Shown here in pieces: positions 10,246-32,552 of a DNA stretch of 64,000 nucleotides. The stretch comes from Mobula hypostoma (lineage: Eukaryota). The notes under the pieces were generated by a model, which saw only the letters and a list, made by a program, of their open reading frames with translations, was not told where the DNA came from and did no database searches. The position numbers and the translations under genes are program-made. Location: assembly GCF_963921235.1 (NCBI RefSeq), contig NC_086108.1, positions 39,806,001 through 39,870,000 on the forward strand, given 5' to 3'. Position 1 is the stretch's first letter. Each line of letters starts with the position of its first letter.

Positions 10246-10479
10246 AATGAGGAATTAGTAGGCTTAAGAGAATTCATTAGAAATCAATATTCTTTGGAAG
10301 TCTCAATGGAAATGGGGAAAATAATCTGCATTGGTCAATATATAATTAGACGTTCCATTTTAGAAAATTAAGTTCTTCAATAAAAAAGTCAAAACATAGT
10401 TACCCTACAATACTTGAATTCATTATTTTTTTTCCAAAGTATAGTTCTGCAGTATATATTAATGAATTTTTGAGCGAGT

Positions 10480-11590
10480 GGACAGATTATTTGAGTAGTT
10501 GGTAAGGGGTCTTACGGGGTGAGATAGATTGGCTGGTTGAGTGATGTCACAGCAACAACCTTGCTCAATGTCAGCAGCACCAAGGAACTGAGTATGGACT
10601 TCAAGAAGTGGCAGTCAGGACAACACATGCTACATATTGAATTGTCAGAAGTGGAGAGGGTGAGCAGCTTCAAGTTTCTGGGCATTAATATCTGAGGATC
10701 TATCCTGGACCCAACGCATTGATGCATTTATGAAGAAGGGATACCAGCTGCTTGACTTAATTCTTAGTTTGAGGAGATTTTATATGTCACCAGGGACTCA
10801 TAACTTTCTATATATGTGTAACATACTGTAACCCAGGCTGCCCACAGATAGCACCCCCCCCCCCACTTCACCTGCCCCAAATTCCTTATGAGGATTCTGT
10901 CTCCTGGCAGGAAGTGGGAGAACATCACCTTTTGATCATACCTCCTCTTATTCCCTTGATTCTGCTTGGCAGTTGCGATCCCAGCCCTGAGAGGGATATT
11001 GATTCGGAGGATGAACACTTGGATGTGTAGGTTATGCTGCCTTTTGCTAACTCCCCATTGATTGAGGAAGAGACTCCCGACCCTTCTCCCATTGAGTCAG
11101 GTGAAGTGGGGGGCGGTGTGCTATCTGTGGGCAGCCTGGGTTACAGCGTGTTACATATGTATGGCAGAAGGTGTTCTGACTTTTTGCATTTTTAGCTTGG
11201 TATGGAAGCCCAATGCTCAGGAAGATGAGGGTGCAGATGGTTATAGACTCAGCCAGCTCCATCGTGGTCATATTCCTCCCACCATTGAGGACCTCTTTAG
11301 GAGACAGTACCTCAAGAAGGTGACACCCATCTTAAAGACCTTTACCATCCGGGACATGCCCTCTTCTTGTTACTACCGTCATGGAGGATGTGCAGGTACC
11401 TGAAGACCAACATTCAATGATTTAGGAACAGCTTCTTCCCCACGCTGCAATCAGATTATTGAATGGTCCATGAACACTACCTTGTTATTCTAATTTTGCA
11501 CCCTTTATTTAATTTTCTAATTTATAGATTTTAATGTCTTTGCAAATAACAAGTTCCACATCATGTCAGTGATAATCTGATTGTGATTAT
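10480..11590 (+). mobile_element. Rex1/Babar-type LINE 3' part, interrupted by the 10817-11155 element
   Basis: NVSSTKEL.MDF, VERVSSFKFLGINI; NFYI|CMAEGVLT is continuous across the insertion. Confidence 0.85.
10817..11155. mobile_element. 339-bp miniature element with 58-bp TIRs, TGTAACA...TGTTACA ends, 4-bp TSD (TATG) and Gypsy pol-like interior
   Basis: 10817-10874 is an imperfect reverse complement of 11098-11155; TATG at 10813-10816 and 11156-11159; the minus strand reads NKRRYDQKV..LPGDRILIRNLG. Confidence 0.85.
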
Positions 11591-11964
11591 ATCTTTAGGG
11601 TAGTTTTTACTGGTATCAGTGTAAAAGATTGTTTGATCTTTACAGTGTGTTTACTTGTTGAATCTTGATATGCACAAATTTGCCATTGCTGTTCTATTTC
11701 AAAAGTGTAAGCACTTGGCAGTAAGTATTTTGAGTTTCTTTAAGTGGAAAAATGCAATACATAATTGCCAATTATTTTAATTTTATTTTGATGAATACAG
11801 GCACTTTTGGGGATGTAGAGCAAAGTTCTTGATTTGTGAACAGTTTAGATGCCACAAATAATATGTGAATGATCAGATTTTATGTTCTCTTCCACCCTAC
11901 CCCTTTCAGGTTTTCAAAGGAATCTTGGCTACAGCCACACAAAAACTTCTGTGCTTAAATTTGA

Positions 11965-12030: not shown

Positions 12031-12403
12031 GTTTCACCCTCAATAGGATATCAGTCTCTTGATAGACATTGAAATGCCAATTTTAAAAAAAGCATTTAAC
12101 TGGAAAATATAAAAATCAAACTAGGTTGCCAGTAAATGAGGCATGCTGATGGGTGAACTGCATTGATCCATTGTAAATATGAAAACTTAATTGACAGGTA
12201 TTTTTGTATGTATAAAGCACCTGTTACAATTTATTACAATTAATCATTTGGTGTGAGTACTGCAAGTAAACAAAATGCATGTAATTAGCTCACTGTATTA
12301 AGATTAGCTGAAACATTGGAATATTTCTGGGTATAATAATGTCATGTCGGTAAATTTGCTACATTTACTATCTTAGGTAAAAGGATCCTACTTTTCTTGC
12401 GTT

Positions 12404-12466
12404 ATGGATGAGCAGCCTCCTCAACAGTTTGCTGGTCATGTTGCAGTTTCTGCATTTCAATCACAG
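12404..12466 (+). CDS. NEK7: NEK7-like kinase, first coding exon (MDEQPPQQFAGHVAVSAFQSQ); exon probably starts at 12377
   Basis: Acceptor tcttag ends at 12376, ATG at 12404, donor CAG|GTAC at 12466/7, phase 0. The MDEQ...FQxQ peptide resembles the NEK7 N-terminus. Too short for the ORF track. Confidence 0.85.
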
Positions 12467-15270
12467 GTACAAATTTTAAAGTTATAAATGTCATTGCAGT
12501 AAAAATAATCCAAAATTGCTTTCTTTTTCACTGCGATTTTTAAAATTAACCAATTCACTTTCATAACTCAGGATTATTTCATTGGAATTTATTTCCTTTG
12601 AAGTACTTTCGAAGTGAAGTTATGGTTGTGATCTGAGAAACGCTGTGTTCTATTTATGGCCACATTCTACAACGACCTTTGTGATGATACCCATACAGTC
12701 TTTTCCTGGGTTTATGGAAAATCTTTGGCCTGCATCAATATGTGGAACCTTTTCAACTCAGCTGAGGATGTTGTGTCTGTGCTTAACCAAAAATTGCATC
12801 TCTGAAAGTGAAGCAACCACTTGCTTTTGCACTGAATTAACAACATGGATAATGTTGCAACATCTCTGGAGTGCCATTGAATTACTTCATCAAACTTAGA
12901 CTAATAAGTTTTTAGCATATTTCAACAAGTATGTGAGCTGATGCCACATAATCTAATGGAAGAACATACTAAACCCATTATTAAAAACGCATGTCTCGGA
13001 ATTCAGATGTGTGAGACAATCCGTGAAGATCATTTTGTGATTAAAAACATAATGGGGGAGTGTACTGGTGTGCAACGTGTTTGGAAGTGAACCAACAGCA
13101 ACATTTACCTTCTGTGAAGTTGTGATTTATTGGATACCAATATTGAACTAATTCAGTTTCAAAAAAATCCTATTTCTGAAACTTGGAAGTGCATATTTGA
13201 TTGCAATATTTGCTTTTGTTGTTTTTGCTTCAGTAGTGTGTTTGATAGTCTTGAATCCTATTAGGCATTTGAACTGTGGGCAATTAAATTGGATAGTATT
13301 GGGATGACAGTGTGTGATTAATGCAGACTTTTTGATGATCGGGACACAGACTAAACTTTGTGCTACAATCTCTGGTTTGTTTTCAGCCACCAAGGAGTAA
13401 TAATTGTAAAATTTATGAATGTAATTGTGCCTTTTTTGTGTATCTACCATCAATTAAAATTAGCTTCACTGATGTTATGCCTGCACTGTTTCAAGGACAG
13501 GTGCTTTGTGGCTGCAGATGGTGGTAGAGGTCATTCTATGGGTCTCTGAAGCTTTCTGGATGACGTGGCTGATCATGAGGGATAGCTGGCATGTGATTTT
13601 TACTGACATAACTCAGGTGGCCTTGGTAAATGAGGCAGAGAGAATGCCCTTTACCATAAGAGAGTCTGCAAGTGCACCAGGAAAATAGTAGCTTGAGAGG
13701 GCTATCATGACCTTGAGGAATCAAACCTGAAGCTTAATGGCCTTGCATGCATGGCTAGAGGATACATTTCTACCAGCTGCACTGTTAACTCATTGTTCTG
13801 TGCAATGCATCCCATCCCTTGTCTTAACAAAACATCTTATCTATCTAGATTCATATTTGAAATTGATTGGATCATCTCCTCAGATACATAGCATTTACAC
13901 TTCAACTTCCAAATGCTAATAGCTATTTGGACACAATGGACATATTGAAATATTGCTATTAACCACTTTTCTCCCTCTTAACGGAGAAGTCTACATAACA
14001 ATGTTGCCAGCAGCAAAGCAGTGGTGTATACATGTGATTTCAATGAATCAAAATGGTGGATGGAATGTTGGTCTTTATTGAAACAGGCAACACAGAGTAC
14101 TTAGCACAAGCCTAGGGATAATGAAAAATAAGGATTTACTCTTAACCGTGACCCATTTTTCATCATCTCAAATATCTTATGTTTTGGAAACTGCAGTGGT
14201 GTAAGCATGAATCTTTAACTTGCCCATTCCACCTCCCCTTACTTTCACTCTACCCCTACATCTTTCTTTCAGGTGGCCAAGATCATCTGCCTGCTCGGCA
14301 ATGGCAGCTGATCAAAAAGAGAATGATGAAGGTACCTCAACACTCAATTTGGCAGTAATAGCAACACAGCTCAGAATCAAGCTCTTAATGTAACTCAGAG
14401 GTGGCACCTGCATGTGATGTGTCACCAAGCAGAGCAGGGAGAAAGCGTAGCCCAAACGCTTGCTTCCTTGGAATGAGATTACACATGATTATCATTCCAG
14501 TTGACTTGTCTGCTGGCTTTACCACATACAAGGATTTTGAGTTTATATAATACGTTAAAATTCTTCACGCATAAGCTGATGCTTAGCATCCTATTTGACT
14601 CTTCCTTTATTAACCATCACACTGCTATGATAGATGACATCTTTACATTATAATATAAGTAGAAGACCCAGTTTCTGAGTGGGTCATTAAATGCTCAACT
14701 TCAGCCACGTAACTTCAATTTGCTGGCATTCGATATCCAATCGTTGCCTTTATAGTTCTAGATATATTTTCAAAGGGGCTTTGCAGATAACATGACACTA
14801 TAATTCTAATAGGTTACCAGAATGCTTAGACGGTGCTTTCAGGGAGTGACACTGGCAAGATGAAGTACCAATCATCATCCTCTCAAAGGATAACAATAAT
14901 CATGTTCTTAACACTGTTAATCCACATTTGGCCTAACCTGTTTTATATCAGTCAGCTTCACTGAGATGAGTCTTCTGGACCTGGTTGTTACCTTGCAAAG
15001 CTGTTTATGACTTTCATCATTGTGTGTCAGTACCATCTCACCGGTTATCTTGTGGAGTACATAGAAGATGCGCGATAAGGATCTGCACACTGATTTGTTC
15101 ATTTCGTTTAGTTTTGGATAAGAAGACTCAATTTCATGAGAAACCAAGGTCTGATAAGTTGGGAACAACTGTGGAATAATGATTTTTTATAGAAGTTCAT
15201 TCATGGAATATGGATGTAATGGCATAGCCACAATTCATGCTGATTATTATTTTTAGAGAAATAGCACTTT

Positions 15271-21330: not shown

Positions 21331-21710
21331 AGTTTGGCTGTTTTTGGCTTTTGGCCTTTCTTTTGACACTGATCAACAGAAAAAGACTTTTTTGTATTAA
21401 AGTGAAATCAGATCTCTACAAAGTGATCTAAATTAATTGCAAAATTAAACACTAAATATTAATTGCATAAATATTCACCCCCTTCAGGTCAGTATTTAGC
21501 AGATGCACCTTTGGCAGCAATTACAGTCTTGAGTCTGTGTGGATAAGTCACTATCAACTTTGCACATCTGAACACTGCAATTTTTCCCCATTCTTCTTTA
21601 CGAAACTGCTTAAGCACTGTCAGTTTATATGGGATATGGGGATCGTGAAAAGAATAGCCCTTTTCCAAGTCCAGCCACAAATTCTCAATTGGATTGAGGC
21701 CTGGACTTGA

Positions 21711-22583
21711 TGAAACTATGTACAGGGAGGAGGTCAAACACCTAGAGAGCTGGTGCAGGGATAACAACTTGATGCTTAATGCCACCAAAATCAAGGAGAT
21801 GATCGTCGATTTCAGACGGTCTCAGCCTGAGCACACACCCTTCAGCATCAGCGGCTCCACAGTGGAGAGAGTGGAAAACATCAAGTTCCTTGGGGTGCAG
21901 ATCTCGGACAATCTCACCTGGTCCAGGAACACCACTGGGATTGTGAAACGGGCCCAGCAGAGATTGCACTTTCTGAGGAAGCTTAAGCAAGCATCACTCC
22001 CCACTAACATCTTAACTACATTCTACAGAGGCGTGGTTGAAAGTGTGCTGACCTTTTGCATCACAACCTGGTACTCCAGCTGCAGTGCTGTCGACAAAAA
22101 AGCCTTGCAGAGGGTGGTTAGGGGAGCAGAGAAGATTATTGGGGTCTCGCTACCTTCTGTCCAAGACCTCTTTCAGAGTCAATGCCTCCAGAAGACAAGG
22201 TACATCATTAAAGATCCCTCACACCCTCTCCATGAACTGTTTGTTCTTCTGCCATCAGGCAAACGCTACTGGAGCATCAAAACTAAAACCATAAGGCTAC
22301 TAAACAGCTTCCTCCCACAGGCAGTCAGACTGCTAAATAGCCGCACCACCTGACTCTGCTTTGGACACTTTTAACTTGCACTGGACACTTATAACTGATT
22401 TTAACTGACATGTGGCTGTTGTGTTTTACTGTTTATTGTTGTGTTTATTATTTAGTGTTGCGTTTGTTATGTTATGATTGCACTGCCCCTGAGAAACGCT
22501 GTCTCATTCTGCCCTGCAGAGCTGATGTATGGTTAGAATGACAATAAAGTTTTTTGAATCTTGAATTTGAATCTTTGAAATCT
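21711..22583 (+). mobile_element. Young Rex1/Babar-type LINE 3' end nested in the Tc1 transposase
   Basis: Uninterrupted 219-aa ORF (WCRDNNL..KEMIVDFRR..KFLGV..LPSGKRY), AATAAA and TTGAATC-type tail. Confidence 0.92.
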
Positions 22584-23842
22584 TGACTTGGCCATTCCAG
22601 GTCATTAACTTTATTGTTTTTAAGCCATTTCTGTGTAGCTTTGCCTTTATGCTTGGGGTCATTGTCTTGCTGGAAAACAAATCTTCTCCCAAGTCGCAGT
22701 TCTCTTGCAGACTGCGTCAGGTTTTCCTCCAGGATTCCCCTGTATTTTGCTCCATTCATTTTATCCTCTACCTTCACAACCCTTCCAGAGCCTGCTGTTG
22801 TGAAGCATCCCCACAGTATGATGCAGCCACCACCATGCTTCACATTGGGGATGGTGTGTTTTTGATGATGTGCGGTGTTTGGCTTACACCAAGCATAGCA
22901 TTTAGTCTGATGGCCAAAAAGCTCAATTATCGTTTCATCAGACTATAGAACCATCTTCCAGCTAACTTCAGAGTCTCTCACATGCTTTCTGGCAAACTCT
23001 GCCCAAGATTTCACGTGAGTTTATTTCAACAGTGGCTTCCTCTTTGTTACTCTCCCACAAAGCAGTGAATGATGAAGCACCTGGTCAACAGTTGTTGTAT
23101 TCACAGTCTCTCCATTCTCAGCCACTGAACTCCTCCAGAGTTGTCATAGGTCTCTTGGTGGCCTTCCTCACTAGTCCCCTTCTTGCATGATTACGCAGTT
23201 TTTGATGACAGTCTGCTCTAGGCAGATTCACAGTGGTGCCATATTCTTTACATTTCTTGATGACTGACTTAACTGTACTCCCAGGGATATTCAGTGACTT
23301 GGAAATTTTCTTATGTCCATCTCCTCACTTGTGCTTTCCAGTAACCTTTTTGTGGATTTGCTTGGAATGTTCTTTTGTCTTCCTGGTGTAGTTTTTGCCA
23401 GGAAGAGATACTGGGATGGTGAGCTTTGATACGAGAAATTGGCATTGAACTAGAAATATCTAAATCAATCAAAGGTATTTAGTCTTTGAACAGCTGCTGA
23501 CAGCAGTTGGACCTTCCAGATACAGATATATTTTTACGACAATCAATTGAAACAAACACTTTTACTGCACATAGGTCACCAAGAACAGATCTCTACTTAA
23601 TTAATAATGTGACTTCTAAAACCAATTGGCTACACCAGTGATGAATTGGTGTGTCATATTAAAGGGGGTGAATACTTATATAATCAATTATTTTTGTGTT
23701 TTATATTTCTAATTCATTTAGATAACTTTGTAGAGATCTGTTTTCACTTTAACACAAAGGGGTCTTTTTCTGTTGATTATTGTCAAAAAAAAAAGCCAAA
23801 TTAAATCCACTGTGATTCAGTGTTGTAAAACAATAAAGCATG

Positions 23843-24190
23843 ATAGGTGTATAAGATGATGAGAGGCATTGATCATGTGTATAGTCAGAGGCTTTTTCTC
23901 GGGGCTAAAATGGCTAGCACAGGAGGACACAGTTTGAAGGTGCTTGGAACAGAGGAGATATCAGGGTAAGTTTTTTATGCAGAGAGTGGTGAGTGCGTGG
24001 AATGGGCTGCTGGCAACAGTGGTGGAGCCGAATATGATAGGGTCTTTTAACTCCTAGATAGGTACGTGGAGCTTAGGAAAAATAGAGGGTTATGGATAAC
24101 CCTAGGTAATTTCTAAGGTAAAGACATGTTCAGCACAGCTTTGTGGGCCAAAGGGCCTGTATTATGCTGTAGGTTTTCTATGTTTCTATG
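23843..24190 (+). mobile_element. CR1 3' end inserted in the Tc1 TIR
   Basis: YKMMRGID..RVVSAWNGL; TTCTATGTTTCTATG tail. Confidence 0.88.
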
Positions 24191-24436
24191 AAAACTTCCG
24201 GGGGGGGGGGGGGGTGAATACTTTTTATAGGCACTGTATTTCAAAGTTTATAACTGCAATTGTCCATAAAAATACTAAAATACTAACAATTGAATAAGCC
24301 CTGGTTTAGCCAGCTGTCAGCAGCTGTTCAAACGCAAATATCTTTGTATGATTTGGACATTCTTGGTCCAATGCCTGTTTCTCTCTTCCAAGTTCTTATC
24401 CCTGTATCTCTTCCTTTTTATCTAAATATACTGGAG

Positions 24437-24600
24437 GCACAAAGGACTCAGATGCTATAATCTGGAATTAAAAAAAACTGCTGGAGAAGCTCAGCAGGTC
24501 AAGCAGTATCCTGTTGCAGTCTCAACGCAAAGCGTCACATATCTCTTTTTCCTCACAAATACTGCCCAATCTACTGAGTTCCTCCAGCCATTTGCTTTTG
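24437..24600. repeat. Palindromic Penelope-end derivative
   Basis: CTGGAGAAGCTCAGCAGGTCAAGCAGTAT is an inverted imperfect copy of ATACTGCCCAATCTACTGAGTTCCTCCAG. Confidence 0.65.
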
Positions 24601-25094
24601 TTATATAATTAGGCTCTGTAGCTCTAAAATACTGTCACAAATAGTATTGTCATTCTTCACACCATCATCTACTTGTCTCTTACTGTATAACTTTACTTAG
24701 TTCCATTCTTATCAGAAATATCAAGGTAAATGATGGTAATTTTGAATAAAAAGCCAAATGACAATGTATTTATAGAGAGGGTCATTCGGTTGGGGGTGTG
24801 AGGAAAGTGGGAGTAGTTCCTAAATGAAGAAAACTTGCACTATGTTAACTAATATTAGTATAAGGAATGAAGCTTGGTGGTTAGCAATTTTCCTGGGATA
24901 TTGAGAGAATGCAGGGTGAAAAATAAGGACAAGATGAACTTGGGAAATGCAAGAACGACAATGGCATAGAATGCAGGGAAAATGCTGATTCACGGAGAAA
25001 CATAGGGATGAACTTAGACAATGTAGGTGAAGGGTACAACAGTTGAAGTTGAATAATCTTGTATTTTGTGATGTAAATGGCCTTTATTGATTGG

Positions 25095-25510
25095 AATAAC
25101 CTTTTCATAGAGTTGCTTGGAGTGTTCTTTTGTTTTCATGGTGTAGTTTTTTGCTAGGATACTGACTCACCAGCAGCTTGACCTTCCATATACAGGTGCG
25201 TTTTTACTGCAATCAGTTGAAATACTTTGACTGCACACAGTGATCTCAATTTAACTAATTATGTGACTTCTAAAACCAATTGGCTGCAATAGTGATGGTT
25301 TGGTATGTCATATTTCAAGGGGATGAATACTTATGCAATCAATTATTTTGGGTTTTATATTTGAATTAATTTAGATCCATTTGTAGAGATCTGTTTTCAC
25401 TTTCAGATGAATGAGTCTTTTTCTGTTGATCAGTGTCAAAAAAGCCAAAGTAAATCCACTGTGACTCAATGTTATAGAGCATAAACCACAAAATCTTTTT
25501 ATAGGCACTG
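25095..25510 (-). mobile_element. Second Tc1 fragment (same end as 23340-24236)
   Basis: Colinear with 23341-23840; ends TTTTATAGGCACTG. Confidence 0.88.
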
Positions 25511-25595
25511 GTAGAGGACCTGAGATTGAGGGGAAAAATGCACATACAAGCCACCCAAAAGGGGTGAGGGGGAAAGATACTTATTTAATTATTTT

Positions 25596-27885
25596 CTCAT
25601 CCCTTGTGGGTGGTGTGTATGTGTATTTTTCCCTCAATCTTGGGTCCTCTACCAGAGGCCTGGGAGCTTGAGGGTTCAGTGCAGTATCCTTGCTGTTACT
25701 AGTAGTGCACTCTTCTAGACCGAGATCTCAGATATTGTTCAGGGATTTGTTGGATCCACTCTCCCTGTCCAGATGTCACAGCTCCAAGTGCTCCTGTCAC
25801 CACCATGATTACTCTGAGTTTAACTTCCCACATCATTTCTATCTGCTCTTTCAAGCCCTTGTATTTCTCCAGCTTCTCGTATTCTTTCTTTCTGATATTA
25901 CTGTCATTCAGGATTGCCACATTGCTTTCTTCTGTTCCTTGTCCAGTATTACTATGTCTGGTTGGTTGGCCAGTACCTGCTTATCAGCCTGTATTTAGAA
26001 ATACCATAATACCTTAGCTCTGTCATTCTCCACTACCTTCTTAGGTATTTCCTATTTGGACTCAAGAATGTTCAATTCATAATTAGCACAGATGTTCCTA
26101 TACACAATTCTTGCAACTTGGTTGTCCGGTTCAATGTATGCTGTCTCTGCCTGTACCTTACACCCTGTTACTATGTGCTTGATAGTTTCAGTGGGTTCCT
26201 TGCTCAGTCTGCCTCTTGGGTCTTGTCTGGTATGATAGACCCTTGCTTACAATATATATTAATGACTTGGATGAGGGAATTAAATGCAGCATCTCCAAGT
26301 TTGCGGATGACACGAAGCTGGGTGGCAGTGTTAGCTGTGAGGAGGATGCTAAGAGGATGCAGGGTGACTTGGATAGGTTGGGTGAGTGGGCAAATTCATG
26401 GCAGATGCAATTTAATGTGGATAAATGTGAAGTTATCCACTTTGGTGGTAAAAATAGGAAAACAGATTATTATCTGAATGGTGGCCGATTAGGAAAAGGG
26501 GAGGTGCAACGAGACCTGGGTGTCATTATACACCAGTCATTGAAAGTGGGCATGCAGGTACAGCAGGTGGTGAAAAAGGCAAATGGTATGGTGGCATTTA
26601 TAGCGAGAGGATTCGAGTACAGGAGCAGGGAGGTACTACTGCAGTTGTACAAGGCCTTGGTGAGACCACACCTGGAGTATTGTGTGCAGTTTTGGTCCCC
26701 TAATCTGAGGAAAAACATCCTTGCCATAGAGGGAGTACAAAGAAGGTTCACCAGATTGATTCCTGGGATGGCAGGACTTTCATATGAAGAAAGACTGGAT
26801 GAACTGGGCTTGTACTCGTTGGAATTTAGAAGATTGAGGGGGGATCTGATTGAAACGTATAAGATCCTAAAGGGATTGGACAGGCTAGATGCAGGAAGAT
26901 TGTTCCCGATGTTGGGGAAGTCCAGAACGAGGGTTTGAGGATAGAGGGGAAGCCTTTTAGGACCAAGATTAGGAAAAACTTCTTCACACAGAGAGTTTGA
27001 GGATAGAGGGGAAGCCTTTTAGGACCGAGATTAGGAAAAACTTCTTCACACGGAGAGTGGTGAATCTGTGGAATTCTCTGCCACAGGAAACAGTTGAGGC
27101 CAGTTCATTGACTATATTTATGAGGGAGTTAGATATGGCCCTTGTGGCTACGGGGGTCAGGGGGTATGGAGGGAAGGCTGGGGCGGGGTTCTGAGTTGGA
27201 TGATCAGCCATGATCATAATAAATGGCGGTGCAGGCTCGAAGGGCCGAATGGCCTACTCCTGCACCTATTTTCTATGTTTCTATGTTTCTATTCCCCTGT
27301 GCTGTCACTCAGCCCTGCCATTTCCAGTCATTGGTAGGACTTGCTTATGTCAGCCACCTCTGATATCTGGCAATGGTACATCCTGTGCAGAGACTTCTCC
27401 TGCTATGGCCCCTGGCTCTGCTTCACCCACTTCTATTTCTGTATCCCCTGCCAATTGTTTGAGGTATTCTCCTGACAGGTTGTCCTTGGGGGTCATCTTT
27501 GTGACATACTCATAGATATTTTGCATTTCTTCCAGGACTGTGTCCTTAACACTTCCAAGTCACTGTCCTCCTCTATTCCTGCGGGTGTACAGTCACTTGC
27601 TGTTGAACTTTGGATGTAATCCTCCGTGAATTGTTAGTAGTTTCTGGATCTTGATGTCAACGGTTTCCAATTCGTTCCTTGGCCAGCACAATATTGTGGC
27701 TGGGTATCTCATGACCAGTAGGGCGAATGTGTTGACTGCTCTGATCTTGTTCTTCCCATTCAGCTGGCTTTTTAGAATCAGTCTCACTCTACGGAAGTAC
27801 TTGGATGTTGCAGCCTTCCTTGTGTCCTCATTGTGGTTCCCATGCACCTAAAGGATCCCCAGGTATTTGTAGCTGTCCTGTACAT
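25596..27885 (-). mobile_element. R4/Dong-type (restriction-like endonuclease) non-LTR retrotransposon fragment, interrupted by CR1
   Basis: DSNIRKKEYEKLEKYKGL..VVTGALGAVT (REL-type endonuclease) and KYFRRVRLILKSQLNGKNKIRAVNT. Confidence 0.85.
26243..27291 (+). mobile_element. Young CR1 3' part nested in R4/Dong, with a 62-bp internal tandem duplication
   Basis: 240-aa ORF YINDLDEG..SKFADDTKL..VRPHLEYCVQFWSP; duplication at 26933 and 26995; CTATGTTT tail. Confidence 0.95.
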
Positions 27886-27957
27886 CAGAAAGTATAAACT
27901 GTAAACAAAATATTTTGAGGTTAGCTTCTGTCTGCAAAAAATCCTACAAAAGTAATA

Positions 27958-28395
27958 GATTTGGCCCAGTACATCACAGGTAAAACCCTCCCAACCATTG
28001 AGCGTGTCTACATGAAATGTTGCTGTAGAAAATCATCAAAGATCCTCACTACACAGGCCTTTCTCTTTTCTCACTGCTGCTGTCAGGCAGAAGGTACAGG
28101 TGCCTCAGGACTCACACCACCAGGTTTAAGAACAGTTACTACCCCTCAAGCATCCGACTCTTGAACTAAAGGGGATAGCTACACTCATTAAGAACTATGT
28201 TGTATTGTTATTTTATGCTCATTCCATTACTATTTATTTATATCTGTATTGCAGAGTTTGTTTACAGTTTATAGTTTCTGATATTTACAGTTACTGTTCT
28301 ATAGATTTGCTAAGCATGCCTGCAGAAAAAGAATCTCAGGGTTGTATATGGTGATATATATACTCTAATAATAAATTTTACTTTGAAATTTGAAA
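27958..28395 (+). mobile_element. Rex1/Babar-type LINE 3' end
   Basis: AQYITGKTLPTIE; AATAAA followed by a TTTGAA tail. Confidence 0.8.
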
Positions 28396-32025: not shown

Positions 32026-32552
32026 TACTCTGTGGCCACTTTATTAGGTACAGGAGTGTACCTTAAAAAGTGGCCACAGAAGTGGAACCCAGTGTGGTCT
32101 TCTGTTATAGTCTATCCACTTCAAGGTTCCCTGTATTGTGCATTGAGAGATGCTCTTCTGCACATCACTGTTATTATGTGTGGTTGAGTTACTATCGCCT
32201 TCCTGTTTGCTTGAACCAGTCAGGCCATTCTCCTCTGACCTTTCTAATTAACAAGGTAATTTTGCCCACAGAACTACCATTCACTGGATGTGTTTTGCAT
32301 TTCACACCGTTCTCTGTAAATTCTAGAGACTACTGTGTGTGAAAATCCCAGGAGATCAGCAGTTCTGTCTGGCACCAACATTCTTAAAGTCACTTAAATC
32401 ACATCTCTTCCCTGTGTTGATATTTGGTCTGAACAACAACAACCTCTTAATCATGTCTGCAAGCGTTTATGCATTGACTTGCTGCCACATTATTAACTGA
32501 TTAGATATTTGCATAAATCAGCAGGTGTACCAAATAAAGTGGCCACTGAGTG
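32026..32552. mobile_element. Non-autonomous Tc1-like element
   Basis: TIRs ACTCTGTGGCCACTTTATTAGGTACA and TGTACCAAATAAAGTGGCCACTGAGT. Confidence 0.85.

Follow-up and report, generated by a model that had tools for sequence, protein, structure and literature searches.

What kind of element combines terminal inverted repeats (TIRs), as in a DNA transposon, with the TG..CA ends of an LTR retrotransposon and a short interior reminiscent of Gypsy Pol? The question is raised by an insertion in a decayed LINE, found in a 64-kb window, by which we mean the whole stretch of DNA that was analysed. An earlier note made from the letters alone had offered two answers: a MITE-like family derived from an LTR retrotransposon and mobilised in trans, or a one-off fold-back cDNA that became integrated.

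Anatomy of the insertion

The element occupies positions 10817-11155 (339 bp), starts with TGTAACA, ends with TGTTACA and carries TATG on either side. Counted from the ends, its inverted arms share 54 bases out of 58 and, when extended, 58 of 64 without gaps; two of the mismatches are TA versus CG at one CpG, while the other two lie within a run of C. The clean insertion, 58-bp imperfect TIRs, tips and TATG duplication described in the earlier note are thus confirmed. Folded as single-stranded DNA, the element is strongly structured (z = -10.5, with equally good folds in 0 of 100 shuffles). Its architecture, TIRs and a target-site duplication (TSD) enclosing a short non-coding interior, is MITE-like, and the combination of TG..CA termini and short TSD expected of a Gypsy LTR element is also present (TGTAACA/TGTTACA, TATG). 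Direct repeat families longer than 15 nt were not found in 10300-11700; the terminal repeats are solely inverted, and there are no direct LTRs. The features of the locus are as follows.

10500-10816, plus strand: host LINE remnant, 5' flank (from window paralogues)
10813-10816, plus strand: left TATG copy of the TSD, seen directly; a single copy fits the unbroken site in four of six LINE paralogues
10817-10874, minus strand: left arm, 54/58 identical to the inverse of 11098-11155; the att-like TGTAACA at 10817-10823 forms its tip
10874-10985, minus strand: piece B, matching Gypsy Pol just past the integrase core (from protein alignments and one contig)
10980-10985, no strand: putative strand-switch joint of B and C, about 6 bases common to both parents (from contig ends)
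10980-11146, plus strand: piece C, acidic Pol-tail DNA of apparently the same Gypsy clade, holding the right-arm body and a stop codon (from contigs and alignment)
11098-11155, plus strand: right arm, with GTTACA twice, at 11140-11145 and 11150-11155
11147-11155, plus strand: terminal tip, ending in TGTTACA and lying outside the listed un-rearranged relatives (from contigs and the coverage estimate)
11156-11159, plus strand: right TATG copy of the TSD, seen directly
11160-11490, plus strand: host LINE remnant, 3' flank (from window paralogues)

When the two flanks were aligned separately to the six other LINE copies in the window, they abutted gap-free, one TATG being counted, in four of the six, and the remaining two gave offsets of -25 and -4. 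The exact abutment in four copies indicates that the element entered a decayed LINE cleanly and duplicated 4 bp of the target. The host, which we take to be of the Rex1 type, has stop codons in both flanks, and its flank at 10500-10816 is 70-73% identical to the other window copies; the paralogues match PF09004, one of them also weakly RVT_1. The proposal that removal of the element restores the LINE reading frame is borne out locally and breaks down beyond, where stops lie on both sides.

TG..CA tips with a 4-5-bp duplication are common by chance: the window contains two such pairs, and 30 block shuffles gave 1.27 on average. What makes the case is that here they coincide with 58-bp arms and with the break in the LINE. 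This chance frequency, about 1.3 per shuffled window, lends something to an explanation by DNA repair, in which a polymerase mended a broken LINE by switching templates on a genomic Gypsy copy and in which the tips and TATG are coincidental or result from a staggered break; the loss of no LINE bases in four of six comparisons speaks against it, and for this and further reasons given below we consider it improbable.

Farther along the window, positions 12378-12467 could be a coding exon, an open 30-residue frame lying between AG and GT, for which an Atlas search gave no usable match; if this exon is real, the insertion sits in an intron.

The Gypsy Pol source of the interior

Both peptides that the earlier note had read in the interior, one on the minus strand and an acidic one on the plus strand, are present in those orientations. 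Piece B (10875-10985, minus strand) was compared by phmmer with 1.84 billion representative proteins and matched 13, of which 11 are integrase C-terminal regions; P0003 and P0008, also among the 13, are repetitive proteins and were set aside. A profile search built from seven piece-B matches retrieved 1,533 proteins at E <= 1e-10, and among the 120 of these that were listed, many carry reverse transcriptase (RT), RNase H and integrase domains. Scoring of 162 proteins against both pieces placed four ray proteins on top (P0055, P0048, P0046 and P0144), and in each of them B and C share one orientation and are separated by about 90 residues. Piece B is 83% identical to P0055 residues 393-422 and 74% identical to P0048 residues 388-421, and piece C (10992-11105, plus strand) is 58% identical to P0048 residues 514-551. 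B and C thus come from a single Gypsy Pol tail. The element lacks the approximately 90 residues between them, a GPY/F-like stretch among these, and has the two pieces in opposite directions; piece B stops right before the GKHKLAD/GPY-F-like stretch of its relatives.

Domains scoring above the cut-off in P0144 are RVT_1, RT_RNaseH, Integrase_H2C2 (the integrase zinc finger) and rve. This annotated ray protein (XP_059838950.1) has 2,164 residues with two tandem RT-RNaseH-integrase units; the gene model was probably drawn across a Gypsy Pol that had been duplicated. The phmmer matches, ray-protein alignments and P0144 domains together confirm that the interior derives from the Pol of a Gypsy LTR retrotransposon. 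Vertebrate Gypsy elements of rays and teleosts (for example XP_072115422.1, XP_072138038.1, XP_059838950.1) are the group that supplied B, C and the body of the arms, and the TG..CA ends and short TSD fit a Gypsy integrase. Unlike a Gypsy element, however, this one lacks direct LTRs, gag, RT and an integrase core, and consists of two oppositely joined internal pieces whose ends are inverted repeats of Pol-tail DNA. The donor clade was presumably Barthez-like. Judged by these relatives, the window itself probably belongs to a ray or a near relative of rays. Teleost Gypsy clades are listed in PMC4746887.

Other searches added little. An Atlas search with the protein pieces of the element gave no usable match. 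Exact pattern scans of metagenome, viral and prokaryote contigs with the arm or piece B found no match, and a protein-based scan of viral contigs gave 56 pattern matches and no relative, both scans being uninformative given how little animal DNA these collections hold. The three Rfam matches all fell far below the gathering score.

A Ginger source, which the earlier note had also entertained, finds no support, since relatives of the two pieces carry reverse transcriptase and RNase H. The element does share TGTNR termini, a 4-bp TSD and TIRs in the range of 40-270 bp with Ginger1 and Ginger2/Tdd, including the 252-bp Ginger2-1N1_NV (PMC2836005), and this general fit could be explained if deletions in a Ginger DNA transposon, with its Gypsy-integrase-like transposase, had given rise to it. 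In the description given there, both groups have TGTNR ends, the TSD of Ginger1 is CCGG/CCGT, and Ginger2 prefers RTATAY and is without GPY/F (PMC2836005). The single target of our element comes close to RTATAY; its TATG duplication differs from that of Ginger1, and piece B adjoins the very GPY/F region that Ginger2 is described as lacking. Moreover, among full-length relatives the nearest is a polyprotein with RT, RNase H and integrase, so that the interior comes from RT-bearing Gypsy Pol and not from a Ginger transposase; the two pieces are inverted, which goes beyond mere deletion; and the arm is internal in relatives, the TIR of the element being internal Gypsy DNA. Descent from Ginger by deletion is therefore very improbable indeed. 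Further non-autonomous families could be held in the supplements of the Ginger papers. As for related groups, GingerRoot elements are reported to have 6-bp TSDs and mostly TA..TA ends (PMC6839031), and IS481EU is reported from parabasalids (PMC10045372).

Arms, tip and right junction

Contigs from 4 of 23 public ray-like DNA runs were placed on 10500-11500 at 80% likeness. Those listed comprise 32 of 44,395 pieces, 15 of 595 joints and 24 of 2,714 loose ends and are mostly LINE; plus-strand contigs were used, and in minus-strand records the side of unmatched letters is ambiguous. One contig (run X1 record 1) spans 10874-10985 with 16 other letters and ends there, and four C-type contigs among those listed begin at 10980. 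Piece C and the arm body, 10980-11146, are covered in one piece (run X20 records 26 and 27), record 26 having 120 unlike letters before 10980 and 106 after 11146; unlike letters also follow 11145-11147 in X2 record 21 (75) and X1 record 5 (19). Their divergence from the window outside 10980-11146 marks these contigs as un-rearranged Gypsy copies, and as such relatives leave the window sequence just before the tip, only about 7-9 terminal bases of the element are other than internal Gypsy DNA.

In each of the four runs, deconvolution of the depth bins left coverage past 11145 worth 1.8-2.1 arm-plateau positions. Given this collapse, at most 18-21% of arm-like coverage can reach the tip, a rough bound, contig depth not being the same as copy number. 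The ratio of B to C depth, to be read with the same caution about copy number, varies among runs, with C higher in X16.

It is the DNA contigs that point to an internal Pol origin of the arm body: compared at the protein level with distant ray Pol tails, the arm body aligned no better than shuffles (101 of 500 as good in the best case). The G-rich run at 11105-11118 was considered as a polypurine tract preceding an LTR and rejected, because ray Pol proteins run on for about 120 residues beyond it; the arm is thus not an LTR start after such a tract. Likewise rejected were the arms as LTR ends or Ginger TIRs, since relatives among the contigs listed carry the arm body internally and not at an end. 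The tip could stem from an LTR end that was fused prematurely to the Pol tail at the GTTACA common to both, or else the donor subfamily could contain a cryptic site there; when the window was scanned for the donor's solo LTRs, one further tip pair turned up, which is chance level.

These observations bear on the patching of a LINE break by template switching. Short overlaps at both internal joints, 10874-10880 and 10980-10985, suit switching guided by microhomology, but the two ends of the element finish on one and the same base of a canonical tip, TGTAACA, and this tip is absent from the internal relatives among the contigs listed. Repair insertions seldom combine a canonical tip ending at the same base, absence of that tip internally and no loss of target.

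Three contigs cross the right end of the element. That of organism B (X2 record 22) continues without a break from 11062 to 11373, differing by 5 letters and 1 gap, that of organism C (X16 record 12) is unbroken over 11120-11377 with 10 other letters and 3 gaps, and that of organism I (X20 record 31), a probable ortholog, covers 11131-11366 with only 25 bases inside the element. By these alignments the right junction is at the same locus in two, and probably three, other organisms, which makes the insertion old, predating the split of those organisms. At one end of the organism I contig, 37 letters are unlike the window; if they are on the element side, the interior of that copy may be altered or deleted. 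None of the contigs listed bridges the left junction or an internal joint. The simulated probability of obtaining the unbroken organism B contig in the presence of 5-100 other copies is 0.09-0.13 at 3.5% divergence and 0.44-0.65 at 7%, so that this contig argues modestly against many close copies; a few further copies could be hidden outside the contigs listed.

Possible routes of origin

Read on the minus strand, the element consists of the tip, C reversed, B forward, and then the last 58 bases of C and the tip again. On balance we think that it probably originated as a one-off aberrant snap-back cDNA, made from a Gypsy LTR retrotransposon of vertebrates and integrated on a single occasion by the integrase of that family. 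Reverse transcriptase would have been the polymerase and the switches would have followed one another in this order: synthesis would begin at the att-like TGTAACA and copy the Pol tail backwards (piece C), switch strands at the overlap of about 6 bases at 10980-10985 to copy piece B forwards, and then snap back onto its own 5' end, copying the first 58 bases and running off. At the B/C joint no special hairpin was detected (z 0.08). The resulting double-stranded product, with TG..CA at both ends, would be inserted by integrase, giving rise to the 4-bp duplication. Integrase requires two TG..CA ends for paired insertion, and a product of this kind would therefore be selected from among faulty cDNAs. 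The two arms end at the same base and are equal in length across 11114-11119, where many relatives have small deletions, as would be expected if both were made in one synthesis with snap-back. With no LTR, primer site or open gene, the element would have been a dead passenger ever since.

A polymerase returning to the nascent 5' end, and thereby generating complementary ends, accounts for copy-back (panhandle) defective RNA-virus genomes and for inverted defective retroviral cDNAs. The geometry proposed here is the same, whereas in this case a DNA product has become fixed in the germ line of an animal via att-like ends. Aberrant HIV integrations that rearrange host DNA (PMC5041404) represent a different outcome. 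In the literature searched, mainly the main texts of open-access articles, no description was found of a TIR element formed from Gypsy Pol by fold-back.

Alternatively, after the same fold-back birth the product may have multiplied into a non-autonomous TIR family of small size, on which a Gypsy integrase or Ginger2-type transposase acted in trans and of which the present locus is one old member. We regard this as unlikely but not negligible. The MITE look of the element (short, with 58-bp TIRs, TGTNR ends and a 4-bp TSD) is in keeping with such a family, size, TIRs, TSD and strong hairpin being held in common with MITEs, and as much as roughly a fifth of the arm-like coverage could extend to the tip. 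A 252-bp non-autonomous Ginger2 family with 52-bp TIRs exists, and the 6-bp target ATATGT, a single target, fits the Ginger2 preference RTATAY at five of six positions (PMC2836005). High copy number and shared ends at many loci, however, are MITE traits, whereas the 64-kb window holds one copy, and the read data lean against a family: among the contigs listed, neither internal joint is bridged and relatives leave the window sequence before the tip, and one ortholog contig crosses 94 bases of the right end unbroken. In addition, just 7-9 terminal bases other than Pol would offer little for a transposase to bind, and excision by integrase is thought to be inefficient (PMC2836005). The more specific proposal that a TIR family born from an LTR retrotransposon, with TIRs of Pol-tail DNA and a minimal att tip, has been repeatedly moved in rays by an integrase-type enzyme seems to us rather unlikely. 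If true, it would provide a worked example of "reverse evolution" from LTR element to DNA transposon, a chain of events called unclear in the account that suggested two opposed LTRs (PMC2836005), and by a route other than that one.

Between the two options of the earlier note, then, the fold-back cDNA is the most likely and the MITE-like family less so, a one-off event being favoured by the arm body, which is internal Pol-tail DNA in relatives, by the collapse of coverage at the tip and by the old orthologous insertion; the element would accordingly exist as a single copy. Even as a one-off, it suggests that an LTR retrotransposon can yield a MITE look-alike in one step, whose TIRs consist of the retrotransposon's coding DNA and whose att-like sequence may amount to as few as 7-9 bases at the termini. 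Such an element is a trap for structure-based annotation of MITEs and Ginger elements and could mark the beginning of a path that leads from Gypsy to TIR elements. Biologically, a lone insertion that is old, dead and located in a decayed LINE has no apparent effect; its importance would be far greater if further copies showed that products of this kind can spread.

Other inverted structures occur elsewhere in the window. Nested inverted and direct repeats at 21350-25490 surround an ORF remnant (22475-22942, minus strand) that resembles a Tc1-type transposase by eye and has no Pfam match at E 0.01. An imperfect palindrome of 148 bp at 25508-25655, 79% self-complementary and with a short loop, is possibly a small TIR element. 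The 52-bp palindrome at 32029-32080, which we take to be a Tc1-type MITE end from its appearance, has an arm that recurs inverted near 32526-32551. Finally, a pair of 26-bp inverted repeats at 27884-28282, 96% complementary and about 400 bp apart, may delimit another small TIR element.
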